Sequence record: OR525700
Length of the DNA stretch: 64,000 bases
Reading direction: 5' to 3' (one strand)
Source: Escherichia phage vB-Eco-KMB37
Part shown: one piece after another, positions 41,409 through 55,963 of the stretch
Position numbering within the stretch: the first letter of the stretch is position 1
Layout: each line of letters begins with the position of its first letter
Notes under the pieces: model-generated
The model's input: only the letters and a program-made list of their open reading frames with translations
Database searches by the model: none
Told to the model about the DNA's origin: nothing
Translations under genes and position numbers: made by a program

Positions 41409-41918
41409 TTAGCGATAGAATTGATGTTCTTTGTAGCGGTACACTAGAACCATATCTTTTTCCCAGTGTGCTCTTATTGTAGATTTTTTAAAGTATAATG
41501 CTCCTTTTGTAATATCTAATGCAATTCGTAATTCTGGAAAATGGTTATCGAGATAAAGTAGACGTTCTGCTATAGCTTTAGCGTCTTTCCACTTATCGTG
41601 TTCCATAACGTTGAATGTCTTTGTGTAAGAGAATTGTCCTTTCTGAAACAAAACTTCTTTTATAGTATCAGGGAAATATGAATCTCTAGCCCTATTCAAT
41701 ACTACATTACCAACAGCAGACATACCGCGCTTTCCTTGATTACGACTTTCTGCATAGATTGCACAAGCTAATAGATTTTCTTTACTATCACGCTTTGTAC
41801 ACTTGTGAACTACTTTAGCAGTTTTTACGTTTGCAGCTTCGGCTTGCGCCACAACAGGTGTAAATGTAAAAGCAGTTAAGGATAGTAACGCAATTGCGAC
41901 AAAGGTTTTTATTGACAA
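41409..41918 (-). CDS. cell wall hydrolase, SleB-like (candidate endolysin) with N-terminal signal peptide
   Basis: 169 aa; hydrophobic N-terminus ending AQAEA; core LLACAIYAESRNQGKRGMSAVGNVVLNRARDSYFPDTIKEVLFQKGQFSY matches the SleB/Hydrolase_2 family; RBS AGGAGG. Confidence 0.6.
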   Translation of the reverse strand: MSIKTFVAIALLSLTAFTFTPVVAQAEAANVKTAKVVHKCTKRDSKENLLACAIYAESRNQGKRGMSAVGNVVLNRARDSYFPDTIKEVLFQKGQFSYTKTFNVMEHDKWKDAKAIAERLLYLDNHFPELRIALDITKGALYFKKSTIRAHWEKDMVLVYRYKEHQFYR

Positions 41919-41949
41919 ACTTGCCTCCTATTTTGTTAAACGAACTTTT

Positions 41950-41978
41950 ATTGTAACACAGAAGAGGCTATTTTGCAA
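41950..41978 (-). promoter_or_regulatory. candidate sigma70-type promoter for the hydrolase gene
   Basis: On the minus strand: -35 TTGCAA (41973-41978), 17 bp spacer, -10 TACAAT (41950-41955). Confidence 0.45.
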
Positions 41979-41980
41979 GT

Positions 41981-42001
41981 GGAGGGGGACTATCCCCCTC
42001 T
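41981..42001 (-). terminator. GC-rich hairpin (candidate terminator)
   Basis: GGAGGGGGA-CTA-TCCCCCTC; downstream U-tract weak. Confidence 0.4.
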
Positions 42002-42010
42002 TACACTCTG

Positions 42011-42613
42011 TTAGATATTGTAAACCTTTGTATGAGTTACTACATCATCTTCTACAAAATCAATACGTTCTTGATCCGTGACTAGTGCAGACAACACTTT
42101 AAATTTAATTTTTACACGTTCAAAAGCTGGTTGACCATCTTTAAGATAATTATGTTCGGTTGTCACTGTCTTGTTTACAAAATCAACTTTTGCTTTACCG
42201 TTTTCGCGTAGGTGGAATGTTTTTCCTGCTTTGTACACAATTTCAACATTACCTTCGAGAGTAATTCCTTCAAAAAGTTCACCCTCTTCTTCATTTTCTT
42301 CACTTTTGAACAGACGACGAAACTCTTCCATATCAAGATAAACAACATCTTCAGAATAACTATCAGTAAGATATGTCTTACCCTCCATCAACCCGAAATA
42401 TTGCCAGATTGCCGAATAAACATCACTAGATGATCCAAGGGTTTCTCTGAGTTTAGTTCCACGGATTACTTCATAAACTTCAAAATTGAAACCAGACTGC
42501 AAAGCATCAAACAGCACATCACTAACTTCTAAAGCATAATCTTCATTGTTGTCAATATCTACAAGAAAATTGCCGCTGCGAATAAGTTTTTGACCTTCTA
42601 AAGTAATACTCAT
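42011..42613 (-). CDS. hypothetical protein
   Basis: 200 aa; RBS GAGGAGAAAA; no motif recognised. Confidence 0.45.
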   Translation of the reverse strand: MSITLEGQKLIRSGNFLVDIDNNEDYALEVSDVLFDALQSGFNFEVYEVIRGTKLRETLGSSSDVYSAIWQYFGLMEGKTYLTDSYSEDVVYLDMEEFRRLFKSEENEEEGELFEGITLEGNVEIVYKAGKTFHLRENGKAKVDFVNKTVTTEHNYLKDGQPAFERVKIKFKVLSALVTDQERIDFVEDDVVTHTKVYNI

Positions 42614-42640
42614 TGTTTTCTCCTCTTTTATTTCAAATAT

Positions 42641-42656
42641 GCGCCCCGAAGGGCGC
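42641..42656 (-). terminator. intrinsic terminator (UUCG tetraloop on minus strand)
   Basis: GCGCCC-CGAA-GGGCGC on plus strand; minus strand has a U-rich tail (AUAUUUGAAAU). Confidence 0.5.
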
Positions 42657-42677
42657 TATGATTTATTACTTGACGTA

Positions 42678-43274
42678 TTACTCGAACCAATCGTCGCCAG
42701 CGCCAAACGCTTTAACTACATCGTAAATGTCAAGCCCAGCCTTACCTACACCATATGCTTTCAGTTTCCATTCGCTATCTTCTCGCACCAGGGAGGCAAC
42801 GTGGCAAATGGTGTTACCTGCAAGTTCTGGAGCCAAGAAGTCAAAGTCCAGCAGTTCAACATTACGTTCATCATCGAAGATTTTAAGGAAACCTTCGGTA
42901 GCGTGACCAAGGCGTTTCTTACCCGTTTCGTCATCAATAGTAATTACGAATGCAATTTCCTGTGCTTCAGCAGAGATATTATCCAGTGTAACATCAATCT
43001 GCTCCATCTGTCCTACACCATCACGAACATCTTCACCTGCAAAAGTAGAACGTTCAGGATCAAATTTCTGCGCGTAGCACACCAGGTGACGAGGAGACAA
43101 CAGTTCCGGCAGACCAGATGCATTGTGTCGGCAAATCAGAGCACTAACATCCAGATCCAGTTTTTCGTTAGATTTCCAAGAGAATTCCAGACGAATGCGT
43201 TTCAGTGCTGGTGCGATCTTTTTCAGAGAAACTTTTTCGCTAGAACCTTTTTTCAGGGAAATTTTCTGAGTCAT
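42678..43274 (-). CDS. terD: TerD-domain protein (tellurium-resistance TerD family)
   Basis: 198 aa; N-terminal ISLKKGSSEKVSLKK, central GEDVRDGVGQMEQIDVTLD and C-terminal EDSEWKLKAYGVGKAGLDIYDVVKAFGA blocks match the TerD fold pattern; RBS AAGGAG. Confidence 0.65.
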   Translation of the reverse strand: MTQKISLKKGSSEKVSLKKIAPALKRIRLEFSWKSNEKLDLDVSALICRHNASGLPELLSPRHLVCYAQKFDPERSTFAGEDVRDGVGQMEQIDVTLDNISAEAQEIAFVITIDDETGKKRLGHATEGFLKIFDDERNVELLDFDFLAPELAGNTICHVASLVREDSEWKLKAYGVGKAGLDIYDVVKAFGAGDDWFE

Positions 43275-43311
43275 AATTTATTATCTCCTTTGTTGTTAAT
43301 TTACGTTGTCT

Positions 43312-43339
43312 ATTTTACTAATCTTTTCTACAAAGTCAA
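43312..43339 (-). promoter_or_regulatory. candidate sigma70-type promoter upstream of the TerD gene
   Basis: On the minus strand: -35 TTGACT (43334-43339), 16 bp spacer, -10 TAAAAT (43312-43317), about 40 nt upstream of the start codon. Confidence 0.5.
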
Positions 43340-43346
43340 GCGTTTT

Positions 43347-44141
43347 TTACGCTTTTGCTCCGAATTTTTTAACCCACTCACCAAACTCTTCGGATAACAG
43401 TTTATCGTAAAGTTCTTCATCAGACAAGGACAAATCTGCAATACCGATAAAATCAACATTATCGTATTCTTTTGCCAAGTCTTTCAGGAATTTAAAGTTT
43501 GCATTACCTACACCAACCATAAACCAGTAAACAGGCGTATTGCGGTGTTTGTTCAGTAAGCTACGTACTGCTGAAGTATCCATGTTCTCCCCGTCAGTTT
43601 GGAAGAAAATCATTGCAGGAGTACGATCAACTTGTGCATCAGTATCTACAACCTGTTCTACAACAGTACGTGTTACTTCTACAAGTTCTTTTTTACCAGT
43701 TAGTTTAGCAAGGAAACCCTTAGCTGGGACTTCTTCATACTCAACAACTTCGCGTGTAATATTTTTCATAGGTACACTACCGAAGTATGTATCATAGATC
43801 TCTTGCATTACTGGAGCATAAGCAGTACCACCGTTGATGCAAACATTAGACATGCAAGAGCCGACATAATCATCATACACATCAGCCGTTGCAGGAGGCA
43901 GTTCAAAAGAAGAACTATTGAAAGCCCACATGTCAATCTGTGCATTATCATCAAACTTCATACCAAACGGCAGCAGTTTACCTACAAAATCACTAACAGT
44001 GCCATCACGATACAGCTCACACATACTACCCGAAATATCTAAGGCGCTACCGACACGAAGAACAACATCGTTAATCTTTTTCTTACGCAGAGATACAGTA
44101 AGAGTTTCTTGACGTTTTTTAAGACTGATTTTATTGGACAT
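43347..44141 (-). CDS. von Willebrand factor A (vWA) domain protein, TerY-like context
   Basis: 264 aa; MIDAS-like DxSxS motif (DISGSM) and downstream T and D positions; N-terminal ISLKK...VSLRKK resembles the TerD N-terminal signature. Confidence 0.55.
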   Translation of the reverse strand: MSNKISLKKRQETLTVSLRKKKINDVVLRVGSALDISGSMCELYRDGTVSDFVGKLLPFGMKFDDNAQIDMWAFNSSSFELPPATADVYDDYVGSCMSNVCINGGTAYAPVMQEIYDTYFGSVPMKNITREVVEYEEVPAKGFLAKLTGKKELVEVTRTVVEQVVDTDAQVDRTPAMIFFQTDGENMDTSAVRSLLNKHRNTPVYWFMVGVGNANFKFLKDLAKEYDNVDFIGIADLSLSDEELYDKLLSEEFGEWVKKFGAKA

Positions 44142-44142
44142 A

Positions 44143-44412
44143 TTATTTCCCCTTTCTGAGTGTAATGTTAGTAACTTCTAAATCCACTTCTACCATTTCT
44201 GTATCATATGAAATACAGCTAAGTTGACCTCTTTGTGAACCGTTCAGACACATTGCTTGGTTTGTATTAACTTTAATAAACACTAAGTTTCTGAACGTAT
44301 CTAAACCAGAATCTTGATACGCAACATAATATACGAATGTATCACCTGCGTCAAGTTCTCCAAAACATTTAGGTTCATCTGATTTATCGTCTTTGATATT
44401 AAATTTAAGCAC
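44143..44412 (-). CDS. hypothetical protein
   Basis: 89 aa; translationally coupled within the operon. Confidence 0.35.
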   Translation of the reverse strand: MLKFNIKDDKSDEPKCFGELDAGDTFVYYVAYQDSGLDTFRNLVFIKVNTNQAMCLNGSQRGQLSCISYDTEMVEVDLEVTNITLRKGK

Positions 44413-44968
44413 TGTCTTCTCCTTTACCTGCTCTCAAACCTAAATAGAAAGCCTCTCTGGTGATCTTTTGCAACTCGTTTAAAGAGATAGTTACAACTAA
44501 ATCATCTTCAATTTCTAGCTTTGAGTCTTCTTCTGTCTCAATGCAAGTATTATGCACTTTGTGGTAAGGATTGTCAACACGTTTAAATTTATTATTTTCA
44601 GTGCTGAAGAAGCAATCTGGATCTTCTTCTCCATCACCCCAGCCCTGGTTAGGGTCTTCTTCAGATCTTTCTGTTGGGATCTCACCTGTAAAGTGCTCTT
44701 CTAATACCATAGCGATACCATCTCCAAGATCGGAAGAGAACATCAAATTACAAACTTCTTCCCAAGGCATAGACCACTTAAAACTTTTACGATTGCCATG
44801 TTTATCTTCTTCGTTAGAGAAAACACTACCATAGCTATCATAATTGCCATACATCTCTTCAACAACTTTACCACCTTTCAAAAGAAATAGGTAGCAAGGA
44901 GAGCCATCGAAAGAGGTAGAAAGAGCAGCATTACCAGACTCTTTGCACAAGAAACTAAAACACCCCAT
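44405..44968 (-). CDS. hypothetical acidic protein
   Basis: 187 aa; D/E-rich, no motif recognised. Confidence 0.4.
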   Translation of the reverse strand: MGCFSFLCKESGNAALSTSFDGSPCYLFLLKGGKVVEEMYGNYDSYGSVFSNEEDKHGNRKSFKWSMPWEEVCNLMFSSDLGDGIAMVLEEHFTGEIPTERSEEDPNQGWGDGEEDPDCFFSTENNKFKRVDNPYHKVHNTCIETEEDSKLEIEDDLVVTISLNELQKITREAFYLGLRAGKGEDSA

Positions 44969-45168
44969 TATACACCAGCCTTAAGATCAATTAAAGCCAA
45001 AGTTGTTTCAGAATGTGTTTGCTCGTCTACAGGTGCAGTCATATGATAATACAAAAAGTCTTCGGCATCATACCAATCTGACTCTTGACCTTGTTTCCAA
45101 CCATCAATGAAAGCATCTTCCATAATGGTTTGTAATTCTTCACGAGTTAAGTGAATATCTTTATTCAT
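44968..45168 (-). CDS. hypothetical protein
   Basis: 66 aa. Confidence 0.35.
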   Translation of the reverse strand: MNKDIHLTREELQTIMEDAFIDGWKQGQESDWYDAEDFLYYHMTAPVDEQTHSETTLALIDLKAGV

Positions 45169-45401
45169 TACACATTCTCCTCTTTTACCAATTCCATCGT
45201 TGAACTATCAAAACCATCTTTAGAAGAATAGGTATAGACAGAACGTAGTTCTCGCAGGACAGTAAACACATTAGGATCATCTAACCAAGCATCCTGGAGG
45301 AGAACATAACGATCTTCATTGTCGTACTGGACAGCGATCATAGAACCAGACAGTTTGTAAATTTTAATATTCATAATATATTTCTCCTTAAAGTAGACCA
45401 C
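45168..45401 (-). CDS. hypothetical protein
   Basis: 77 aa. Confidence 0.35.
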   Translation of the reverse strand: MVYFKEKYIMNIKIYKLSGSMIAVQYDNEDRYVLLQDAWLDDPNVFTVLRELRSVYTYSSKDGFDSSTMELVKEENV

Positions 45402-46491
45402 GTTTAACAGTTTGAATCATACCATCTTCAAGAGATTGCACTTCTTGAATGTAATCAATACGAGCAGCACGGGCTTCAGTGTTGATCCGATTAGTTTCTT
45501 CCAACATTTTAACTAAGTTTTCTTGATCGCGACGTAATGTTTCAATATCCAATACTTGACGATTAGCAAGTTGCGTAGCTTCAATTTGGTTTTGTGCAGC
45601 CAGATCACTACCCATTGCAATAGCAGCATTAAACTCATTCAGTACATTGTTCTGTGTATCGGCTGCTTTCTTCTGGCGTAGACTTTCAATATACATAGAA
45701 AAGTTTGCAGAGTAAGCAGGAATAACATTATTCACAATGTTACGTGCTGATCGCATCAAACTTGCAGATACTTTCTGCATACTTTGTACACGTGGCCCCA
45801 TCTGAACACACAGTAAACGCAAGGCTTTCAGGTCTGCAATACGAATTTCAAGCAGATCCATAGTATCACGAGTACGTTGACGCTCTTCTACTTCATTTTC
45901 AGGTAGTGTATTAAGGCGAACTTCTTCTTTTTCATAAGTAGCTGTTAGAAGCTCTATATCCCTGTTTAAGCTAAGAGCATATTTTGCAATAGCCTCTTCT
46001 AAACGTTGCAGATATCGTAAAGAATCTTCTTCTTTTTTCAAATCTGTTTGGAGTGTCTTTACCAAACCTTCAATACGATTATTGATGGTGTCAAATTCAC
46101 CAAACAAATCTTCTTTCATACCTAATACTTTCTTAACTAGCTTACCTAAGCCTTTAGATTGTTTAATAGAGTTAGGATCAAGTTGCTTTGCTTGCTTAAT
46201 AAGTGCAGTTAAACGTTCACTCATTTCATCTCCCTGAGATGAACGCTGGTGTTTAAGCACTTCAGCATTAAGGTTACGAAGAGTAAGTCCTGCATCAGCA
46301 CCAACTTGTTCAATCTCTTCACGAGACATTGGAGGCAGCATTTGTACAGGTCGTGCAACAGCAGGGGCATATACAGGGCTTGCATCCATAGCACTTGGAG
46401 CAAACAAAGACTTACTTTTTTCTGTTGTTGCCGTGAATACACTCATTTCAGACGGTTTGCTTTTTACGGCACTGATAAAAGGACTGGACAT
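45388..46491 (-). CDS. TelA-like toxic-anion-resistance family protein
   Basis: 367 aa; long predicted coiled-coil architecture with disordered N-terminus, similar in size and organisation to TelA/KlaA proteins; GGAGGAA RBS; sits within a TerC/TerD neighbourhood. Confidence 0.45.
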   Translation of the reverse strand: MSSPFISAVKSKPSEMSVFTATTEKSKSLFAPSAMDASPVYAPAVARPVQMLPPMSREEIEQVGADAGLTLRNLNAEVLKHQRSSQGDEMSERLTALIKQAKQLDPNSIKQSKGLGKLVKKVLGMKEDLFGEFDTINNRIEGLVKTLQTDLKKEEDSLRYLQRLEEAIAKYALSLNRDIELLTATYEKEEVRLNTLPENEVEERQRTRDTMDLLEIRIADLKALRLLCVQMGPRVQSMQKVSASLMRSARNIVNNVIPAYSANFSMYIESLRQKKAADTQNNVLNEFNAAIAMGSDLAAQNQIEATQLANRQVLDIETLRRDQENLVKMLEETNRINTEARAARIDYIQEVQSLEDGMIQTVKRGLL

Positions 46492-46559
46492 TCAATTTCC
46501 TCCATATTCTTTAGTAGATGGTGATACCTCTGTACCACCATCATAACACAAATTAAGTA

Positions 46560-47411
46560 TTAAACAAACATATCTAAATAATTTGTAGTAATAAATGCTC
46601 CATCTGCTTCCAGATTAACATAACCAGTAGCATTAGTGGTTAAGAAATCCAGATCGAAGGACTCTTTAACACCCCGTACCTCAACACGAGAGATATCGAA
46701 TACAGGTAGTGTAACAGCCTCTTCGTGCAATACCGTACCTTTGTAGGTTGCCTTAATGATAAACTTGATATTACCCGTTCCCGCATCATACAAAACACTT
46801 TCAAACCCTTTGAGAGTATACTTATCACCAGAAGTGAAGTGCAAAGTTGCTTTGTTTACAGTACGTTTTTTACGAGGAGTTCCTTTCACACGTTTATGAT
46901 CACTACGTTTTTTGTATTTAGGAGTGAATACAAACGATACACTCTCAAGAAAGGTATCAACATCAAGGATTTCAATATCCTCTGTTGCAGCAAATTTTGA
47001 AGTCGTTGCATCAAAATGCTTTCCCCTGCGATCATACATAAAGATATCAAACCGATCTTCTAAATCAAACAAATTATGTATCTTAATTTCAGAATGCTTG
47101 CACATTGCAGCAACCTTAAACTCTTCAAAACGTGGGTGTTCTACAAGCTCTTCAAGTTTTACACCAAAGACAGTATATTGTTTCGAAGTTTTTTCTGGCG
47201 TTGGCACTACAGAAGCATAATCACCGATTGCGCTTTTAAAGCAAAATTGTTCTTGACCTGTATTTTTACCAACGAATTTACAGTATTCGTCATCGTGCAT
47301 ACTTTCTTTGGTAGTACCAACAAACTCAAAACCATCTTTATTCTTCTCAAGAATTTCTTGATTAAAGATCCAACCTTCCAGGCGATACACTTTACCAACT
47401 TCTAGTTTCAT
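46560..47411 (-). CDS. hypothetical protein
   Basis: 283 aa; no motif recognised; lies between TelA-like and lipoprotein genes. Confidence 0.45.
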   Translation of the reverse strand: MKLEVGKVYRLEGWIFNQEILEKNKDGFEFVGTTKESMHDDEYCKFVGKNTGQEQFCFKSAIGDYASVVPTPEKTSKQYTVFGVKLEELVEHPRFEEFKVAAMCKHSEIKIHNLFDLEDRFDIFMYDRRGKHFDATTSKFAATEDIEILDVDTFLESVSFVFTPKYKKRSDHKRVKGTPRKKRTVNKATLHFTSGDKYTLKGFESVLYDAGTGNIKFIIKATYKGTVLHEEAVTLPVFDISRVEVRGVKESFDLDFLTTNATGYVNLEADGAFITTNYLDMFV

Positions 47412-47446
47412 CTGTTTCTCCTTCTTATTTAATCTGTATTAAATTA

Positions 47447-48037
47447 TTAACGACGACGTGAGCTACTAAAACTACGTTTCGACGAAGAATAACTTTTCGA
47501 AGACTTACTATAAGAGCTAATAGGGCTTGAGTAAGACTTACGAGCAGAGTAATTACTATTCACTTTTGTTGTTGATGGGCGTGAATACGTTTGTACACTT
47601 TGCTGCTTAATTGTGTTTTGTTTAGTGGTTGTATATGTATTCCCTTGTTTATCATAAAAACTATGCTTTTGTGTTGTATATGCTTTACTGTTAGTTGTAG
47701 GAGCAGCATTGTTATTAATAATTGTTGTGTTGCTACCACCATCTCTATAACCACCACCGCCACTATTACCACTCAACATATGACCAAGAAGCATACCTGT
47801 AGCAAACTCACCTACACCAGAAGAACCACTGCCGCCTCCTTGCACAACAACTGTTGAAGGTTGTGCAGGTGCTGCTTGAACAACTTGAGGTGCAGGTTGA
47901 TTTACATACTGTTCATCTACCATCTGATTTGGTGTTTGTTGGTAACGTTGGTTTTGTACACTTTCAGAATCATCACAACCTACCAGCAATGCACTACCTA
48001 AAACAACTGCAACAATAAAAGATTTAATGTTTTTCAT
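47447..48037 (-). CDS. lipoprotein with Q/S/T/G-rich low-complexity region
   Basis: Start trimmed to ATG at 48037 (RBS GAGAGGG); signal peptide with lipobox LVGC (MKNIKSFIVAVVLGSALLVGCDD); S/T/Y-rich C-terminus. Confidence 0.55.
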   Translation of the reverse strand: MKNIKSFIVAVVLGSALLVGCDDSESVQNQRYQQTPNQMVDEQYVNQPAPQVVQAAPAQPSTVVVQGGGSGSSGVGEFATGMLLGHMLSGNSGGGGYRDGGSNTTIINNNAAPTTNSKAYTTQKHSFYDKQGNTYTTTKQNTIKQQSVQTYSRPSTTKVNSNYSARKSYSSPISSYSKSSKSYSSSKRSFSSSRRR

Positions 48038-48230
48038 TTGTAACCCTCTCATTTAAAGTCTCAACACAATTTTTAAAATCTCTAGAGAAACAATACATCT
48101 GTTCTCCGTTCCTGTTGATAGTAATTGTATGGTTATCAATATATGTTGTCAATATAAAAATCAAACAAAATAGCCCTAAAGCAAAACAAATATTTTCAAA
48201 CAGAATCCAAAGAACACGTAAAACCACCAT
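48024..48230 (-). CDS. small membrane protein (tentative)
   Basis: 68 aa with a central hydrophobic helix; overlaps the lipoprotein start by 14 bp. Confidence 0.3.
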   Translation of the reverse strand: MVVLRVLWILFENICFALGLFCLIFILTTYIDNHTITINRNGEQMYCFSRDFKNCVETLNERVTNEKH

Positions 48231-48245
48231 CAGATCACCTCAATA

Positions 48246-48263
48246 AAGCCCCCGAAGGGGCTT
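48246..48263 (-). terminator. intrinsic terminator (UUCG tetraloop on minus strand)
   Basis: AAGCCCC-CGAA-GGGGCTT on plus strand; minus strand downstream UUAUUG. Confidence 0.6.
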
Positions 48264-48269
48264 AATGAA

Positions 48270-49247
48270 TTAAGCAACAGCCTGGTCTTCTTTTTCAGGG
48301 AAGATTAAACTTGCAATAACACCCAGCCCCAGAGTACCTAACACAATATACATACTGATCGTCGGATCAATGTGTGCTGGCAGGAAACTCACTTTTGCGT
48401 GCAGAGTTTCTGCAAACGGGTGATACATCAGTTTTACACCCACAAATACCAGGACTACGATAACTGCTTTCTCCAGATGAACCAAATATTTCAGTGCAAC
48501 ACTAAGGACAAAGAACAGAGCACGTAGACCTAAAATTGCACACAGCATTGAAGAAAATACAAGCAGAGGTTCTTGTGTAACTGCAATTACTGCTGGAACA
48601 GAGTCTACTGCAAAGATTACGTCAACCATTTCCATTACGAACACACAAACCAATGCAGGAGTTGCTACACGAACACCATTTTTGATTGTGAAGAACTTCT
48701 CACCATCCATCTGATCAGATACAGGGAACAGCTTACGAACAATGCGAGTAGCCCAGTGTTTAGAATAATCAACTTCTGCGTCATTATCTCCAGCGAATAC
48801 CATTTTAGCTGCACAGAAAAGGATGACAGCACCGAAGAAGATATTAACATACCAGCCCAAACTCAACAAGTAAGTGCCTACTGCTACAAACACACCTCGG
48901 AAGACAATCGCACCTGCAATACCCCAAAGTAGAATCTTGTGTTGCAAGTGTGTGCTTTTAATACCAAAACTTGCGAATACTGCCACAAATACTACTAAGT
49001 TATCTACAGAAAGAGATTTCTCCAACACATACCCACTCAAGAACAAGCTCGCAAAATCAGCACCGTGTTGGAAGTATACAAAACCATAGTAGGCTAACGA
49101 TACTCCAATCCAGAAAATTGACCAGCCAATTGCAGATTTAAATGAAATTTCTTTGTTTTCTCTGTGTCCAAAGAAATCAATACAAATCGACAAGACTAAA
49201 ATACCCACTAAAACAACCACATCAATAATTGGGAAACCCAGTTGCAT
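48270..49247 (-). CDS. terC: TerC-family integral membrane protein
   Basis: 325 aa with multiple transmembrane segments; duplicated TerC signature blocks (LEKSLSVDNLVVFVAVF and FAVDSVPAVIAVTQEPLLVFSSMLCAILGLRALFFVL). Confidence 0.75.
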   Translation of the reverse strand: MQLGFPIIDVVVLVGILVLSICIDFFGHRENKEISFKSAIGWSIFWIGVSLAYYGFVYFQHGADFASLFLSGYVLEKSLSVDNLVVFVAVFASFGIKSTHLQHKILLWGIAGAIVFRGVFVAVGTYLLSLGWYVNIFFGAVILFCAAKMVFAGDNDAEVDYSKHWATRIVRKLFPVSDQMDGEKFFTIKNGVRVATPALVCVFVMEMVDVIFAVDSVPAVIAVTQEPLLVFSSMLCAILGLRALFFVLSVALKYLVHLEKAVIVVLVFVGVKLMYHPFAETLHAKVSFLPAHIDPTISMYIVLGTLGLGVIASLIFPEKEDQAVA

Positions 49248-49265
49248 TCTTTTCTCCTCTTTAAT

Positions 49266-49284
49266 GCGGAGGACAATCCTCCGC
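49266..49284 (-). terminator. GC-rich hairpin (candidate terminator)
   Basis: GCGGAGG-ACAAT-CCTCCGC; immediately upstream of the TerC RBS on the minus strand. Confidence 0.4.
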
Positions 49285-49324
49285 TCTATGTTGTATACTA
49301 TAAACTGTTTTTAAAGAAAGTCAA

Positions 49325-49573
49325 CTAGTTCAGTTCTGTAATTTTAAGTTTATCTTCTTTGTTAATAATAGGGAAAGCTACAGCATCACCTACATCATCA
49401 ATAAAGCAAACAGCAAGACCACCTTCCACTTTGCTAACTTGACCATTAAAGGCGTGATACGGGGCAGGAACAATATCTCCATCTTCAAGGAGAATAGCCT
49501 CATAAACCTTACCAATAGTACAATCACGAGTGTTTTTAAATTTTTCAAGCACTTCAACATTTACTTTACGCAT
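49325..49573 (-). CDS. hypothetical protein
   Basis: 82 aa. Confidence 0.4.
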   Translation of the reverse strand: MRKVNVEVLEKFKNTRDCTIGKVYEAILLEDGDIVPAPYHAFNGQVSKVEGGLAVCFIDDVGDAVAFPIINKEDKLKITELN

Positions 49574-49587
49574 ATAAAGATCCTCTC

Positions 49588-49794
49588 TTATTTGTTAGAT
49601 TGAAAGATACCACGAAGTACCGCAAGAATGAACGTCACACAGACTACACTCCAAAACGTTACAGGAACATGATGCCAGTCTAAACCGATAATGTCAATCA
49701 TATAGTTGTATGCTAAAAGCAGTAGCCAACTAGGGATTAACACAATCAAGAACACAACAATAAAACAACCTAATACTGCTAAAACACCTGCCAT
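49588..49794 (-). CDS. small membrane protein
   Basis: 68 aa with two hydrophobic helices. Confidence 0.45.
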   Translation of the reverse strand: MAGVLAVLGCFIVVFLIVLIPSWLLLLAYNYMIDIIGLDWHHVPVTFWSVVCVTFILAVLRGIFQSNK

Positions 49795-49803
49795 ACTTTC
49801 TCC

Positions 49804-50520
49804 TTATTTCAGTTTGTAAACAATTACATTTAAACCTTTGTTCACTAGAGTTTCTTCGATCATAAGTTTTACAATATTCCAAGAACCTCCAGCCAAACCA
49901 CAACCAAGCATTGGTAAACCTACAATTTTACCGCCTGAAGATACAACATCGTCTCCCATACTATCTAATGCATTGTAGATAGCTTCATAATTCAGGTCAC
50001 GCTTACCTTCCTCACGACGACTATAACCATATTGTCCATATAAATTATAAATTGTCAAATTGTTTTCTGTATACTTAGTAAACGTACCTAATTTTTTATA
50101 ATCACCACGTTTAGTGGCACAATCTGCTTTAAACGCACCAGGCCACTTGCTTTTAATTTTTGGTGCAATACCACTACCCATAGTGCAAAAACAGTTACAG
50201 CAGTGTGCTATAGCGTCTATATCGCCTCTCTCGGCTGCTGCTAAAAGATCACCGTGTACCTCAATGATACCTGCTGGATAACTTGTTACAATTTCATCTT
50301 CCCAGTACATTTTCTCTACACCACCGATCAGTGCAAAGTTTTGTGTAATGCGATCATCAATATAATTAAGACCTGAAACATACACAGCATATTCATCCTG
50401 TGCTGTAATGCCTTGTACACGAATTCTTAAGACACCATCTTTATCTGTTGCTACACGCCCAAAATCTTTTTCTGTAATATTGGTGATAGGATCTCCGAAA
50501 GTCATCACTTTATTAGACAT
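49804..50520 (-). CDS. macro-like (ADP-ribose-binding/processing) domain protein, tentative
   Basis: Start trimmed to ATG at 50520 (RBS AAAGGGGA); glycine-rich blocks AIAHCCNCFCTMGSGIAPKIK and GLPMLGCGLAGG loosely resemble macro-domain phosphate-binding loops; assignment uncertain. Confidence 0.3.
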   Translation of the reverse strand: MSNKVMTFGDPITNITEKDFGRVATDKDGVLRIRVQGITAQDEYAVYVSGLNYIDDRITQNFALIGGVEKMYWEDEIVTSYPAGIIEVHGDLLAAAERGDIDAIAHCCNCFCTMGSGIAPKIKSKWPGAFKADCATKRGDYKKLGTFTKYTENNLTIYNLYGQYGYSRREEGKRDLNYEAIYNALDSMGDDVVSSGGKIVGLPMLGCGLAGGSWNIVKLMIEETLVNKGLNVIVYKLK

Positions 50521-51370
50521 AATAATCCCCTTTAACATTAGATTTGTTGATAATGTTGCTTTCAAAAAATTGACGCAGGAAATCAAAGTTCTCTTTGTAT
50601 TTTTCAATATTATTGTAACCTTCTGCAAGGCAACCAAAGAACAGTTGTTCTACATAATACAAAGGAAGTTGTGAAAGTGCAATTTTAAAATCAACTTCGC
50701 TTTGACTCATTAGATACTTAATAGGACGAACCAAACATTTAGCATCAGTTTCTTGCTTAATCATTTTAATAAAAGCTGCCAGGTTATTGATATAGTTGAA
50801 GTTAAGCGCAGCTTCGGTGTTGGCTTCTGTACCTTCATACTTTGCAAAGTACAGGAAAAACGTATCGTTTTCAACACCTTCTTTGTCTAAAATTTCAATA
50901 AGTTTTTCTTCGTGTGTTCCTGTAATATTAACATCATCAATGAAAATCAGAGTTTTATTACCCCAGAAATCACGATTGATAGAGAAAGTGTCACCATCGA
51001 TCAAAGCCTTACGATCTTCTTTGCTAAGAAATCCATAATCATTGATATAACTCACTTTACGATGAACGATATCCCACTCTACTGCTTTACCTCCTTTGAT
51101 AGAGATTAGGTAGTTGAGGTGATCTACAAAATGTTCAGATAACACTGTAGCTGCATTTTTCACATAGTTATATGGAGATGGAATAACAACAAAACTTTCA
51201 TTTACTAGTCGTTCTTCATATTTAGAAAAGAAACTTTCAGCCAGAATGCGTCCCATTCTTTTTGCTGCCTGGTTACTACCAAACTTTAGTTTGGAATAAT
51301 CTGCAATGTTAAATTTTGCTTCCTTCAGATTAGTAAAAGTATTAGCAAAATGTTGAATTTGATTACGCAT
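50513..51370 (-). CDS. phosphoribosyltransferase (type I PRTase) domain protein
   Basis: 285 aa; PRPP-binding loop LIFIDDVNITGTHEEK (hydrophobic-DD-x-x-TG-T); RBS AAGAGGAA. Confidence 0.6.
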   Translation of the reverse strand: MRNQIQHFANTFTNLKEAKFNIADYSKLKFGSNQAAKRMGRILAESFFSKYEERLVNESFVVIPSPYNYVKNAATVLSEHFVDHLNYLISIKGGKAVEWDIVHRKVSYINDYGFLSKEDRKALIDGDTFSINRDFWGNKTLIFIDDVNITGTHEEKLIEILDKEGVENDTFFLYFAKYEGTEANTEAALNFNYINNLAAFIKMIKQETDAKCLVRPIKYLMSQSEVDFKIALSQLPLYYVEQLFFGCLAEGYNNIEKYKENFDFLRQFFESNIINKSNVKGDYYV

Positions 51371-52019
51371 TAATAAGTTCCTCTTTTTTAAGTTTAGCCA
51401 ACAAGTCTTCTGGATTAATAATATGACAGAACTTCATCCCTGTGTCAACAGCTTTTCCATCATAAATCAAACTATCTCCAACGTGTAAAATCTCCTCTGG
51501 TGCGAGATCAAACGTTACCATTTCATCAAAAGAGAGTTTAAAAAACCTAGGATCTGGTTTACACAAACAAAACTCATCAGAGAAATGCATAAAGTCAAAT
51601 GGTAATTTTGTTAAGCCAGAATATACAGCTAAGAAACTACCTGGTACAAAATTAGTATTGCTCTTAATACTCAAAGAATAGGTTGAACTTAGCTCTTCCA
51701 ACTTCTTGCAAAGCTCAGGGTTCAATATTGGAGGATGTTTTATAAACATTGCTAAACAGTCTCTTTTTAACCCATCTACTTTATCAAGATCAATGTTCAA
51801 ACGAGTAGAAAGTGTTTCCCAAGCATTTCTAGACGTTCCACAAATACCTTTTTCTGCTTTTAAATCCAGGAGAGTTTTTACCTCTTTATACACGGTAGCT
51901 GCTTCTACCTCAGAACAAGAGGCATACTCGGCAATAACCTTGTTACGCTCTTCTGCATACAAGGGATTAGCAGTAATAAGAGTATTCCATACATCAAAAG
52001 AAATATGCTTAACAGTCAT
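51363..52019 (-). CDS. HAD-superfamily hydrolase
   Basis: Start trimmed to ATG at 52019 (GGAGGA RBS); motif I ISFDVWNTLI and motif IV-like HVGDSLIYDGKAVD. Confidence 0.5.
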   Translation of the reverse strand: MTVKHISFDVWNTLITANPLYAEERNKVIAEYASCSEVEAATVYKEVKTLLDLKAEKGICGTSRNAWETLSTRLNIDLDKVDGLKRDCLAMFIKHPPILNPELCKKLEELSSTYSLSIKSNTNFVPGSFLAVYSGLTKLPFDFMHFSDEFCLCKPDPRFFKLSFDEMVTFDLAPEEILHVGDSLIYDGKAVDTGMKFCHIINPEDLLAKLKKEELINA

Positions 52020-52021
52020 TT

Positions 52022-52177
52022 TTAATCCTCCGTCCAAAAGAATATCATCTGCTTAATTTTATTAATCTCTTGACGTAGTAACTTTCCAGCATGTGATTGA
52101 TCTTTAAGATTTGCAGCAAGAGTTTCAAGCTCCGTTAGTTTTTCCTGGATAGCTTTATATTCATCATCTGTAAGCAT
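52022..52177 (-). CDS. small hypothetical coiled-coil protein (51 aa)
   Basis: ATG at 52177 preceded by AAAGGGGAAGAAA; stop 2 nt before the HAD start; not in the supplied ORF track because under 60 aa. Confidence 0.4.
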   Translation of the reverse strand: MLTDDEYKAIQEKLTELETLAANLKDQSHAGKLLRQEINKIKQMIFFWTED

Positions 52178-52188
52178 TTTCTTCCCCT

Positions 52189-52392
52189 TTAGAATGGTAA
52201 TCTTTGTATATCACTTGTCCCCACACCAAGAAGTCTAGCAATATCCTTATCTAAAAGCAACTCTTTTTGTTCTAAAATGTTAATCAGATCTCCTAATACT
52301 TCTTTAATGTCACGATCATTTTTAGCAACGTGACCACCTGCTGTATCAACTTTATCTTTAAAAACAAAATAATGATCCATAATACCCTCCAT
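52189..52392 (-). CDS. hypothetical protein
   Basis: 67 aa; RBS GGAGGG. Confidence 0.4.
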   Translation of the reverse strand: MEGIMDHYFVFKDKVDTAGGHVAKNDRDIKEVLGDLINILEQKELLLDKDIARLLGVGTSDIQRLPF

Positions 52393-52398
52393 ACAAAT

Positions 52399-52420
52399 AA
52401 AGGAGGCTTTCGCCTCCTTT
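52399..52420 (-). terminator. intrinsic terminator (GAAA tetraloop on minus strand)
   Basis: AAAGGAGGC-TTTC-GCCTCCTTT on plus strand; minus strand followed by AUUUGUAU. Confidence 0.7.
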
Positions 52421-52426
52421 TATCAC

Positions 52427-53587
52427 TTAGTAAGAACGACCACCAAACACATACTCTGTGTAGTTTTTACGTTCTTTGTTTTTAATAACAACTTCAATGT
52501 TGTTACCTTTATCATCGGTGAACATAAAGTGATAACCGTCACCACCCATTGTACGAATGTGTTTTTCATCATACGTTAGCAAGATACGGTCTACACCCCA
52601 GTAATAGTCACCTTCTTCATCTTTATCTTCTACGGTAACAATCCCTTCCATTTCAGGAAGATGCTCTTCTCCTAACTTATGGTCTACAGCTACAACATAA
52701 CGATTACCGCTAAACAAACCTTGTGCTGTCATACCGTCAATATCGGTATCTGACGAAACATCTGCTGTACGATCTACACCGTTAACTTTCAGAAGTTTAA
52801 CTTCTTTTGCAGCATAGCGGTGTTCAGTAATACTGATACCCATTAATGCAAGTGCATCAGAGAATTTGTCATTAGGGTAACGGTTAAGTTCTTCTACTAA
52901 TGACTGAACAATATCAAAGTTCAAATCCACGGAGAGATTATAAAGCGTTTCAAAATCTGGTAAGAAGGCTTTGTTCTCCAGATTTTTAGCCAGATAATCA
53001 TCCATAGTAGCTTTAGGTAGTTTCTTATAGCTAAAACTGTAGAAAATACGGCTAGGACGATTACGCAAAAATTCTGATACATAACCATCATTTTTAGTCA
53101 ATACAAACAGTTTGTCATAACCACCAACACCATCCAGCAGGGTAAGCAGACCATCTTGTGCATCTTTTTCAGCATACAGTTTATCAAATTCATCAATCAT
53201 AATCATCACAGGTTGTGTGATTTTAGACATAAAATTGATAAAGCCTTCACCATTAAAAGCACTACCGATAGAAATAGTAGGAATACCCATTTCACGAAGA
53301 GCAGAAGACAGCATTTTAGCTTGCAAAGTTTTACCGCTACCTTTCGTACCCTCAAGGAGAACACCTGTGTTTTTACCTTTGCGGCTAAGGAACGTCTTGA
53401 TAATACGTTCTGATTTATCATCAGTATCACCGTATGTTACTGAAGGAACTTCCATATCGTTTTTAGGATACAGGAAGAACTCACCACTTTGAGTAACACC
53501 TACACCAAAAGTTCCTGCTGGAATTTCTTCAATATCTGTACCAGATTTCTGACGCAGGAAGATTTGATTGCCGAATACTGTAAACAT
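52427..53587 (-). CDS. AAA+ family ATPase
   Basis: 386 aa; Walker A GTKGSGKT and Walker B VMIMIDEFD. Confidence 0.6.
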   Translation of the reverse strand: MFTVFGNQIFLRQKSGTDIEEIPAGTFGVGVTQSGEFFLYPKNDMEVPSVTYGDTDDKSERIIKTFLSRKGKNTGVLLEGTKGSGKTLQAKMLSSALREMGIPTISIGSAFNGEGFINFMSKITQPVMIMIDEFDKLYAEKDAQDGLLTLLDGVGGYDKLFVLTKNDGYVSEFLRNRPSRIFYSFSYKKLPKATMDDYLAKNLENKAFLPDFETLYNLSVDLNFDIVQSLVEELNRYPNDKFSDALALMGISITEHRYAAKEVKLLKVNGVDRTADVSSDTDIDGMTAQGLFSGNRYVVAVDHKLGEEHLPEMEGIVTVEDKDEEGDYYWGVDRILLTYDEKHIRTMGGDGYHFMFTDDKGNNIEVVIKNKERKNYTEYVFGGRSY

Positions 53588-53607
53588 AGTTTTCTCCTCT
53601 ATTTAAT

Positions 53608-54078
53608 TTAGTCAGATTCCCAAATGTTGTCTTTCTTAACCCACATTCGTTGATTATCTGAGCCTCTATAACGTTTCGTTGTTGGTTGATTCATATCATA
53701 CTTACCATCTATCACTATGTCAACCAGTTTTTTAATTTTCTCTGGAATTTCTTCAAAAAGATATCCTGTGTATAAGACAATATCTTTTTTGTTTCCAAAA
53801 CAATCTCTTACCTTCTCAAGAACATACGCTACAGTGTCAATGTTCTCTTTGTCAAGAGGTTCACCACCTAAAACTGTTAATCCTTTAATGAAAGGTCGAG
53901 ATAAATCTTCCAAAATAAGATCTAATGTTTCAGCAGTGAACTCTTGTCCGTAATTATACGACCAGGCTTTCTGGTTAAAGCAGCCACGGCAACCGTGGCT
54001 ACAACCGCTCACCCACAAAGAGCATCTTACACCGTCACCGTTGAGCATGTCAACAGGTTCATATCCGGCGTAATTCAA
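53608..54078 (-). CDS. nrdG: anaerobic ribonucleoside-triphosphate reductase activating protein (radical SAM)
   Basis: 156 aa; cysteine cluster GCSHGCRGC (CxxxCxxC) near N-terminus; 4 bp overlap with the upstream nrdD stop. Confidence 0.8.
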   Translation of the reverse strand: MNYAGYEPVDMLNGDGVRCSLWVSGCSHGCRGCFNQKAWSYNYGQEFTAETLDLILEDLSRPFIKGLTVLGGEPLDKENIDTVAYVLEKVRDCFGNKKDIVLYTGYLFEEIPEKIKKLVDIVIDGKYDMNQPTTKRYRGSDNQRMWVKKDNIWESD

Positions 54079-55874
54079 AAATGTTTCTCCCTTTCTAGTA
54101 CCTCTTGCATTTTACCTTTGTTATAAGGGCGAGAGTTAGGGGCAGAAAGGTATCCTGACACTCTTCTGATCACAGATATGGATTCTTCTTCATGATTACC
54201 GCAACTTGGACACTCGAAGCCTTTAGCCGTTGCTTTAAATTCACCATGAAAACCACATTTGAAACACTGATCTACAGGTTGGTTCACGCCAAAATAAGGA
54301 ATTTTATTGTAGGCATAATCTACAAGAGTTTCCAGTGCTTGCAAGTTATTTTTAAGGTTTGGTGTTTCTACATAACCTATGTTCCCACCATTACTAATTT
54401 GTGCAAAACCTTCCTCATAATCCCACTTTTGGAACGGGGTAGTGTGCATCCATACAGGTTGATGGAAAGAGTTTGTCAAGTAGTCACGATCAATAGAGCC
54501 AGGATAGCGATCATTTAACGCTTTGGCAAATTTATAGCACAAGGATTCTGCTGGTGTTCCATACAAACTAAAAGCTAAACCAGAACGTTCTTTAAATGTG
54601 CAACAGATATCCTTCATATATTGAAGGATGTTTTTACCCATTGCTTTTGGATTGGTGTTATTTGGGTATAAAATCTCCATAGCTTCTGCTAAACCTACAT
54701 AACCGATACTAATAGAGGCATAACCACCTTCAAATAGTTTACCAATCTCTTCATTAGCTTTTAGTCGAGCTAAAGCACCTTCCATAAACAATGTAGGGTT
54801 TTGAGATGCTTTGGTATGTCTAATACGGTTAACACGTAGCATATGTGCCTTATACGCCATCTCCATATGTTGTTCCAACAGTTCAGTAAATAAGATGCCC
54901 TTTTCACGGGACTCTGCTGCAATGATAGGTAAGTTTAAAGAAACTACGCCTAAGTTGAAACGACCATCATATTTTTCACCTTGCTCTGTTGCATAGTATG
55001 ACAAGAAGCTACGGCAACCCATGCTTGTAACGCGACCATCTGAAGATCCTGTAACTTCTTTGTTTAAAGGTACAGAGATAAAATCAGGATAAATGCGTTC
55101 AGCACAACACTCCATTGCCAGTTGCTTCAAATCATAATTTGGATCGCCAGCTTTCATGTTAACACCATCTTCCAAGAAGAAGATAACTTTAGGAAACACA
55201 GGAGTTACCCTATCTTTTCCCAATCCTTGTTTGTGCACCATTAGGTAGTTTTTAGTGATCATTCTACCAAAAGCAGAGGTATCCAAACCTAAACTAATTG
55301 TTATAAAAGGTGACTGACCATTTACACTCATTAGAGTGTTCACCTGGTAGATTAAAGTTTGCATTGCATCATAGACCTGTTTATCTACCATACGCATAGC
55401 AATATCATAATCGCCAACATCGGCATATATTTTATTAAAACTTGCTTTAACGTATTGACTAAGCCCAGTATCAACATGTGCACAAGTTTGTCCACCATAT
55501 TGGCTAGAAGCTACTGCTTGAATAATTTGAGTTAGGACAGTAGTTGCTACGCCAATAGATTTTGGTTTTTCAATATGCGCATTACCAATACGGAAACCGT
55601 TCTCAAGCATATCTTGGTAATTTACCAGGCAACAATTAGTTAGAGGTGAGAGTAAATAATCTAAATCGTGAATGTGACCATACCCACTCTTATGCCATTC
55701 TGCCAGATCTTCCGGTAAAATATGGGTCATTGCCATGTGCTTGCTTAGGATACCTGCTAGTAAGTCTCGGTGAGTATTAACAATCATTGCAGGTTTGTTT
55801 GCATTTTCACGAGTAAATTCTTCGGATGTTTGTTCGAGGAATCCGATTACATCCTCATATAGTTTTTGGGTCAT
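54075..55874 (-). CDS. nrdD: anaerobic ribonucleoside-triphosphate reductase (class III, glycyl radical)
   Basis: C-terminal zinc ribbon CFKCGFHGEF...CPSCGNHEEE and glycyl-radical motif RRVSGYL; start set at ATG 55874 (GGAGGA RBS) rather than 55904, which lies inside a terminator hairpin. Confidence 0.85.
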   Translation of the reverse strand: MTQKLYEDVIGFLEQTSEEFTRENANKPAMIVNTHRDLLAGILSKHMAMTHILPEDLAEWHKSGYGHIHDLDYLLSPLTNCCLVNYQDMLENGFRIGNAHIEKPKSIGVATTVLTQIIQAVASSQYGGQTCAHVDTGLSQYVKASFNKIYADVGDYDIAMRMVDKQVYDAMQTLIYQVNTLMSVNGQSPFITISLGLDTSAFGRMITKNYLMVHKQGLGKDRVTPVFPKVIFFLEDGVNMKAGDPNYDLKQLAMECCAERIYPDFISVPLNKEVTGSSDGRVTSMGCRSFLSYYATEQGEKYDGRFNLGVVSLNLPIIAAESREKGILFTELLEQHMEMAYKAHMLRVNRIRHTKASQNPTLFMEGALARLKANEEIGKLFEGGYASISIGYVGLAEAMEILYPNNTNPKAMGKNILQYMKDICCTFKERSGLAFSLYGTPAESLCYKFAKALNDRYPGSIDRDYLTNSFHQPVWMHTTPFQKWDYEEGFAQISNGGNIGYVETPNLKNNLQALETLVDYAYNKIPYFGVNQPVDQCFKCGFHGEFKATAKGFECPSCGNHEEESISVIRRVSGYLSAPNSRPYNKGKMQEVLEREKHF

Positions 55875-55893
55875 TAATCCTCCGTGGAAAATA

Positions 55894-55916
55894 AAAGCCA
55901 GCATTAAGCTGGCTTT
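55894..55916 (-). terminator. intrinsic terminator
   Basis: AAAGCCAGC-ATTAA-GCTGGCTTT on plus strand; minus strand followed by UAUUUUCC. Confidence 0.7.
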
Positions 55917-55963
55917 AGGGTGGATCTTTATTTTAAATCTTTTTCGTAAGATTGTCCTTGATC

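Follow-up and report, generated by a model that had tools for sequence, protein, structure and literature searches.

The gp180 gene

The gene considered here lies in a 64,000-nucleotide stretch of DNA from Escherichia phage vB-Eco-KMB37 (sequence record OR525700), the whole of which we refer to as the window. It corresponds to phi92 gp180 and is a minus-strand open reading frame (47447..48037) with an ATG at 48037, a TAA at 47447-47449 and 196 codons. A preliminary description of the window had suggested a lipoprotein with an LVGC lipobox and a low-complexity tail rich in Gln, Ser, Thr and Tyr, encoded between TelA-like and TerC genes in a Ter-like cluster. At the level of sequence these points are borne out: the lipobox is L18-V19-G20-C21 and ends a signal peptide, with an invariant Cys21; the 176 mature residues include 32 Ser, 17 Gln, 17 Thr and 11 Tyr; and the gene does lie between TelA and TerC, with gp179 and gp181 intervening, in a cluster resembling those for tellurite resistance (Ter). 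Our comparisons place gp180 in an unnamed, uncharacterised and widespread lipoprotein family that is essentially phage-borne and has an unusual, disordered design.

The start codon is preceded by a Shine-Dalgarno sequence (Table 1), which a longer in-frame alternative (ATG at 48052) does not have. In the GenBank record of phi92 the gene begins at this ATG too, with an annotated ribosome-binding site (RBS) and a 20-residue signal peptide that is cleaved after residue 20. These two features are all that the phi92 record adds, the protein being annotated everywhere as hypothetical.

The window is that of a phi92-like coliphage. Over 5 kb around gp180 it is 98-99% identical to Escherichia phages ECGD1, W22, PHB05 and phi92, which belong to the genus Justusliebigvirus (subfamily Stephanstirmvirinae), and gp180 itself is found in 54 Justusliebigvirus records at 95-100% identity. 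Among four close relatives there are 5-7 synonymous and 1-3 non-synonymous differences, and the ratio of non-synonymous to synonymous polymorphism (pN/pS) is 0.06-0.12, indicating that the gene is under purifying selection. We regard gp180 as a real, selected and conserved phage gene and not as a chance open reading frame. A scan of all start codons in the window revealed no second convincing lipoprotein gene, leaving gp180 as the sole credible one. A scan for promoters and terminators gave counts equal to the shuffled expectation.

Lipoprotein signal and predicted sorting

The N-terminus of gp180, MKNIKSFIVAVVLGSALLVG followed by Cys, consists of a basic n-region, a hydrophobic h-region and the lipobox, the codons of which were checked by hand. 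Signal peptidase II substrates carry the pattern [LVI][ASTVI][GAS]C no further than about 35 residues from the start, and gp180 does so with MKNIKSFIVAVVLGSALLVGC. Across 30 aligned homologues Cys21 never varies, and D22 and D23 hardly do. A lipobox is present in 155 of 174 proteins of the wider family.

In E. coli and the Enterobacteriaceae, Asp at position +2, with Asp, Glu or Gln as the usual next residue, is a strong signal for avoidance of LolCDE and retention in the inner membrane (PMC6469965, PMC5727369, PMC9595528). The mature start of gp180, Cys-Asp-Asp-Ser (C21-D22-D23-S24), has this arrangement with no adjoining basic residue, and its 29 closest homologues begin Cys-Asp-[Asp/Glu/Ser]. 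From this signal gp180 is therefore predicted to be an inner-membrane, periplasm-facing lipoprotein in E. coli, where it should be lipidated and held on the periplasmic face of the membrane.

A chain predicted to be disordered, with a single helix

AlphaFold2 run on the 30-sequence alignment returned the signal helix only, with a mean pLDDT of 45. A 56-sequence family alignment raised the mean pLDDT to 56 and gave two helices, residues 4-19 and 74-89 (pLDDT 65-76), the remainder being of low confidence. Mature gp180 is predicted on these models to be disordered except for the 16-residue glycine-zipper helix at 74-89. The possibility that this core helix crosses the membrane and leaves the basic tail in the cytoplasm, in keeping with the positive-inside idea, was considered and rejected. 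For the most hydrophobic 19-residue window of the mature chain the Hessa free energy (dG), taken as a simple sum, comes to about +9 kcal/mol; the core helix is therefore not expected to be transmembrane and the entire mature chain should be periplasmic.

Besides the residues already listed, mature gp180 contains 16 Gly and 13 Asn, and it has no Cys after Cys21. Charge is distributed very unevenly along the chain, with a net -4 over residues 21-66, +4 over 97-150 and +11 over 151-196. This last segment of 46 residues has 20 Ser, 11 Lys or Arg and no acidic residue. The final 35 residues can be read as about four heptads of the form S-[YF]-S-x-x-x-[KR], with aromatic residues at 163, 169, 176, 183 and 190. 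Tandem Repeats Finder detected no DNA-level tandem repeat in the gene, hence the heptad pattern is kept at the level of the protein.

An unannotated protein family

Just 29 clusters came out of a word-indexed search, each of them on contigs of phage size. When the N-terminal 112 residues were used for an exhaustive profile search, the yield at E <= 0.001 was 220 representatives, including 21 at E <= 1e-10, where a representative stands for a cluster at 50% identity. The members have a common architecture. From the N-terminus onwards there are the lipobox, a Gln/Pro-rich linker, the motif P-V-[VI]-V-Q, a Gly-rich run and the zipper helix, and then T-[TV]-[VI]-[VI]-N, a Ser/Arg/Tyr-rich tail and a basic C-terminus, which is di- or tri-basic in about 150 of 174 members (RRR in 64, RRK in 16, GRR in 16).

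Conservation within the core helix was counted over the 148 rows that are not phi92-like and have a residue at the position. G81 is kept in 144 and G85 in 143 (about 97%), a Ser, Gly or Ala occupies position 89 in 130, and His86 is found in 96 (65%). Met82 and Met87 are kept in about 40% of the family sequences. Since the two glycines are near-universal whilst the methionines are not, the family-universal feature is, on these counts, a glycine zipper and not a Met/His metal site.

The GxxxGxxxG-type ladder of small residues recalls the glycine-zipper clan of Pfam, to which Gly-zipper_Omp, Gly-zipper_YMGG and Rick_17kDa_Anti belong and which includes proteins such as SlyB/Pcp and OsmB. As in glycine-zipper lipoproteins, a small-xxx-small helix with Gly-rich flanks (G81xxxG85xxxS89 in gp180) is the only ordered element. 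gp180 differs in having one short zipper where the clan has two helices, in its inner-membrane sorting signal and in its long cationic tail, which is absent from the clan proteins. The hidden Markov models of the clan gave no match to gp180 at E <= 0.1 and none was listed for ten family members.

Only two library families contain gp180 and, both being without annotation, they are functionally uninformative. PHROG 21570 matches over its full length (E 1.3e-121, residues 1-196 against profile positions 1-196) and PHROG 32479 matches residues 64-180 (E 3e-15). Pfam and NCBIfam searches with gp180 and ten family members gave sub-threshold matches only, mostly to the signal peptide, and a sequence search of the PDB gave matches only at the level of the signal peptide. 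PADLOC returned no match for gp180, gp179, gp181, TelA or TerC.

Genomic contexts

Genomic context was inspected for about 20 loci out of the approximately 220 family representatives; all were phage or prophage. The first arrangement is that of phi92-like, phAPEC8-like and related large myoviruses, in which the order is TerC, a gp181 homologue, the lipoprotein, a gp179-like gene (with SprT in some) and TelA. This order is kept while identity of the lipoprotein drops to 40-50%, as against 69-95% for TerC and 73-79% for TelA. The second arrangement was found in six loci of enterobacteria that are temperate and prophage-like, among them an Erwinia tasmaniensis contig, where a DNA methylase, a holin, a SAR endolysin and Rz with embedded Rz1 are followed by the lipoprotein gene. 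Elsewhere the family gene adjoins NrdD in phage contigs of about 30-90 kb, lies beside a Band_7 gene, or sits on a contig with a 2005-residue protein.

Adjacency to TerC is limited to the phi92-like and phAPEC8-like phages, and regular co-occurrence with Ter genes across lineages was not found. There is no Ter gene nearby in L010, L012, L015-L017, L019, L020, L022, L024, L034 or L035, and in a 153-kb phage (L033) TerC and TelA lie close together with the lipoprotein gene some 7 kb downstream of TelA, beyond a cell-wall hydrolase. A scan for the core motif in one genome each of 185,579 bacterial species gave three loci, two of them phage-like by gene content and the third the Erwinia prophage. 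Because the family occurs elsewhere in other phages, we take it for an envelope module that is portable, and for neither a core nor a fixed component of the Ter system.

In the prophage loci the gene 3' of the lipoprotein encodes a protein with a basic N-terminus (MFRWLRERR...) and an acidic tail rich in His, Ser and Asp that ends in ...SSW. A metagenomic protein, P0156, fuses the core helix of the family to a similar poly-His/Ser/Asp tail ending in SSSWD. The prophage pairing and this fusion hint at a two-protein pair of basic and acidic low-complexity tails.

Table 1 Features of the gp180 gene and its product, genes on either side, and a prophage neighbour of related genes (window coordinates unless a contig is named).
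Feature	Position	Strand	Evidence or remark
gp180 coding sequence, 196 aa plus stop	47447..48037	-	PHROG 21570 match; purifying selection
Shine-Dalgarno GAGGG, 6 nt 5' of ATG 48037	48044..48048	-	RBS annotated at same place in phi92 record
Signal peptide, residues 1-20; predicted helix 4-19, pLDDT ~85	47978..48037	-	AlphaFold2; phi92 annotation
Lipobox L18-V19-G20-C21; Cys21 predicted lipidated mature N-terminus	47975..47986	-	Codons; C21 invariance
Asp22-Asp23 at +2/+3, predicted Lol-avoidance signal	47969..47974	-	Sequence; conservation; rule from PMC6469965
Acidic Gln/Pro/Val-rich disordered linker, residues 24-66, with conserved P-V-[VI]-V-Q at its end	47840..47968	-	Alignments; AlphaFold2
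Core helix, residues 74-89 (GVGEFATGMLLGHMLS), glycine zipper G81xxxG85xxxS89 and His86	47771..47818	-	AlphaFold2
Conserved TTIINNN, residues 104-110 (T-[TV]-[VI]-[VI]-N in wider family)	47708..47728	-	Alignments
Polycationic Ser/Tyr tail, residues 151-196, with RRR end at 47450-47458	47450..47587	-	Composition
gp181, 68 aa, one hydrophobic segment, two Cys (C47, C56) in C-terminal part	48024..48230	-	Between gp180 and TerC
TerC-family integral membrane protein (PF03741, E 1e-38)	48270-49247	-	Pfam
gp179, 283 aa, no family assigned	46560..47411	-	Between gp180 and TelA
TelA family (PF05816, E 5e-34)	45388-46491	-	Pfam
Protein encoded after the lipoprotein in prophage loci	L015 6264-6833; L017 10349-10759; L022 1903-2397; L024 10572-10994		

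The small gene gp181 has a stop that overlaps the start of gp180 by 14 nt, and a gp181 homologue lies directly upstream of the lipoprotein in every phi92-like and phAPEC8-like locus examined. In these myoviruses gp180 is, judging from the gene arrangement, translationally coupled to this small membrane protein. gp181 has a weak match to DUF6693, below the cut-off. A further homologue of gp181 was found on a 420-bp contig labelled 'Lysobacteraceae' (L013). On the other side, the C-terminal domain of gp179 (a basic KKR..VNKAT segment, then F..G..YT.K) is kept downstream of the lipoprotein in the same group of phages, and the L005 and L006 lineage has an extra 71-aa gene resembling the gp179 N-terminus.

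All of these genes belong to a co-oriented minus-strand block (41409-55904). Its first part encodes NrdD, NrdG, an AAA ATPase, HAD, PRTase_3 and Macro proteins and two small genes; TerC, gp181, gp180, gp179, TelA and several small genes follow; and the last part holds vWA-TerF, TerD, a 200-aa gene and a SleB-like Hydrolase_2. By gene content the block is a fairly complete phage Ter system ending in a second cell-wall hydrolase. The Macro-domain gene of the PRTase/HAD/TerC cluster (49804-50520, minus strand) matches the DarG model of PADLOC (E 4.9e-14) and could be an ADP-ribose-removing counter-defence against DarT-type toxins. Four GenBank records labelled 'Campylobacter phage' (MG065639, MG065645, MG065656 and MG065689; A150, A145, C3 and A110a) are 98.3% identical to the coliphage over 5 kb. 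They give C. jejuni as host, and these host labels look doubtful.

Models for gp180 function

The preliminary description had named superinfection exclusion and receptor masking as known roles of phage lipoproteins, and had raised for this one a possible functional partnership with TerC. Exclusion at the inner membrane is possible for gp180. The reading that we favour, and hold only tentatively, is that gp180 is an envelope modifier working at the level of the inner membrane and periplasm, probably an exclusion factor that blocks competing phages at genome entry. gp180 would act on the periplasmic face of the inner membrane, with the core helix serving for self-association or for docking to a membrane partner, for which gp181 would be the best candidate. 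The long cationic disordered tail would extend into the periplasm and bind anionic envelope material. The periplasm or inner-membrane surface of the infected or lysogenic cell would be altered in such a way that competing phages fail at genome entry, which is where other mobile elements, too, act with their inner-membrane exclusion proteins and entry-exclusion lipoproteins. In lambda, the slot after Rz/Rz1 is where the lipoprotein moron bor is carried, and the moron-like position of the family gene in the six temperate-phage loci fits an exclusion role. So does the proposal that phage-borne Ter clusters act against superinfecting phages (PMC7824862).

Four points weigh against exclusion at the inner membrane. 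Asp at +2 is found in just 64 of the 155 family members with a lipobox, and the phAPEC8-like homologue begins Cys-Glu-Asp; inner-membrane retention is therefore no family-wide trait. No homology to any exclusion protein was detected, the PADLOC, Pfam, NCBIfam and PDB searches yielding signal-peptide matches only. The gene shares its strand, in the prophage loci, with the late lysis and morphogenesis genes and lies only 22 nt after Rz, which suggests late expression, unlike that of an exclusion gene expressed in the lysogen. Finally, what the tail would bind is purely inferred. The entry-exclusion lipoproteins of conjugative plasmids (TrbK of RP4, EexN) are comparable in being lipoproteins of mobile elements that block entry of competitors. 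The NCBIfam matches of family members to TrbK and EexN are below the cut-off and confined to the signal-peptide region, there is no similarity in the mature part, and TrbK has fewer than 70 residues.

A partnership with TerC would make gp180 a dedicated periplasmic and possibly metal-handling protein, whose Met/His-rich helix (TGMxLGHMM) passes a metal ion to or from the TerC transporter. We consider this rather unlikely, and the suggestion of the preliminary description is only weakly supported. In its favour, phi92-like and phAPEC8-like phages retain the order TerC-gp181-lipoprotein-gp179-like-TelA despite the divergence of the lipoprotein noted above. TerC proteins are described as metal transporters or chaperones. 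The P0156 fusion joins the core to a poly-His tail, the neighbouring protein in prophages is His-rich, and the similarly laid-out DUF1190 lipoproteins have been termed 'metal-chelating' (PMC11237479). A subset of 21 sequences shows no variation at T, G, M, G, H and M, but it was picked by this very motif and so lends no independent support. Against the partnership, at least ten family loci have no TerC or other adjacent Ter gene, and in the one phage described above the lipoprotein is detached by about 7 kb from a TerC-TelA pair that has remained together. The family-wide conservation of the glycines, set beside that of Met82, Met87 and His86, fits helix packing better than a metal site. gp180 is thus, as far as gene order can indicate, not an obligatory partner of TerC.

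The six temperate-phage loci also raise the possibility of an accessory function in lysis, either in timing or control through the holin, endolysin or spanin, or as a membrane-perturbing lipoprotein released at lysis. There the gene comes right after the holin, SAR endolysin and Rz/embedded Rz1 on the same strand, and the Ter cluster of the window and its relatives ends at the SleB-like cell-wall hydrolase. Glycine-zipper helices are typical of membrane-active peptides. However, NrdD-adjacent contexts have no lysis genes, and the family has no similarity to known antiholins, releasins or disruptins. In phi92-like phages the lysozyme and spanin genes are in the structural module, far from gp180 (PMC12210895; PMC6139136 supplement). 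We judge a lysis accessory to be unlikely.

Also doubtful is a YgiB-like role in which gp180 would protect the inner membrane and periplasm of the infected cell from envelope stress and have no part in competition with other phages. YgiB is under Cpx regulation, and Citrobacter that has lost it becomes more sensitive to pH and peroxide stress. The layout is parallel: like gp180, YgiB has a lipoprotein signal, a Gln/Ala/Pro-rich linker, a Gly-/Met-rich hydrophobic patch (SFWMPLMAGYMMGRLMGG against GEFATGMLLGHMLSGNSGG) and a Ser/Thr/Arg-rich tail, and large phages of enterobacteria carry lipoproteins of both types. Two family members have Band_7/SPFH genes in their vicinity. This layout and the Met-rich patch had led us to suspect homology to YgiB/DUF1190, which was then rejected. 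When gp180-family profiles were aligned by hhalign with the single YgiB and with a 15-sequence DUF1190 alignment (bacterial members and seven phage members), the signal peptide only was matched. The hallmarks that are invariant in the DUF1190 alignment (four conserved Cys in the N-domain, TRGGFG and a C-terminal S-x-G-G) are absent from the gp180 homologues. PF06693 gave no match to gp180 at E <= 0.1, and the best family members, at E 0.29 and 0.33, scored some 12 bits where the gathering cut-off is 22. Position +2 is Glu in YgiB and Asp in gp180. The resemblance to YgiB is therefore an analogy at best.

DUF1190/YgiB-like lipoproteins are nevertheless present in 138 phage records (Erwinia, Klebsiella and Cronobacter jumbo phages, Vequintavirinae and the T4-like Moon), a distribution that would suit a protectant. 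Examples are L025 7001-7570, L026 7001-7615 and L030 3001-3579, and, of seven that were inspected, none lies within a Ter cluster. In the Vequintavirinae relatives KNP2 and CR3 the phage DUF1190 genes do not occupy the gp180 slot. Large enterobacterial phages seem repeatedly to acquire envelope lipoproteins of the general layout shared by gp180 and YgiB.

A more speculative reading, to which we give little credence, is that the family consists of phage-specific, membrane-tethered disordered proteins of the periplasm that would coat the inner membrane, on its periplasmic face, with a gel-like or condensate layer. The tail, with Tyr, Arg and Lys set in Ser, would act in 'sticker-and-spacer' fashion and self-assemble together with the Gln/Asn-rich, beta-prone segments (PVVVQ, TTIINNN). 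In unrelated phages such a layer would be a physical seal against incoming DNA or would control envelope breakdown. If true, this would be a rare case of functional phase separation in the bacterial periplasm.

Receptor masking at the outer membrane, as practised by T5 Llp and by Cor, was not borne out and is very improbable for gp180. Llp and Cor are small, folded lipoproteins of the outer membrane that bind FhuA on its periplasmic face, and small phage lipoproteins that jam TonB-dependent receptors have been called common in coliphages (PMC9586334). gp180 shares with them that it is a phage-encoded lipoprotein on the periplasmic side of a membrane. Llp and Cor have some 60-80 residues (61 in Llp), are folded and disulphide-bonded, and are encoded beside the gene for the receptor-binding protein. 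gp180, in contrast, has 176 mature residues that are nearly all disordered, has no Cys beyond Cys21, and is encoded in the metabolic/Ter region and not beside a receptor-binding protein gene. Asp-Asp after Cys21 predicts retention in the inner membrane, and masking of the Llp/Cor kind is therefore unlikely. Moreover, the receptors reported for phi92-like phages are glycans or the LPS core and not a TonB-dependent transporter (PMC8594841).

That gp180 and gp181 form a spanin pair, as o-spanin (Rz1-like) and i-spanin, is suggested by the 'overlapped' architecture of the two genes and is effectively refuted: according to Kongari et al. the spanins of phi92 are encoded by another pair of overlapping genes (phi92 genome positions 55669-56101 and 56006-56336; PMC6139136 supplement), Asp at +2 and +3 is incompatible with the outer-membrane anchor of an o-spanin, gp181 has only about 40 residues outside its hydrophobic segment and no coiled coil, and the prophage loci hold a complete Rz/embedded Rz1 besides the family gene.

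Significance

The account of gp180 given here is at present descriptive and drawn from sequence. To our knowledge, the phage lipoproteins with known roles make up a few small folded families, namely the Rz1 spanins, Llp/Cor and Bor. The gp180 family, which spans about 220 clusters from virulent myoviruses and temperate prophages, is of quite different design, in which a lipid anchor is combined with a single glycine-zipper helix and a long, cationic Ser/Tyr tail whose basic C-terminus is conserved. Its distribution also shows that the genes of phage Ter clusters are not all Ter-specific, which is relevant to the reconstitution of such clusters. If gp180 proves to be a factor for exclusion or envelope control at the inner membrane, the family would represent a new class of phage envelope modifiers, and this would help to annotate a recurrent 'hypothetical protein' of phi92-like therapeutic phage candidates.

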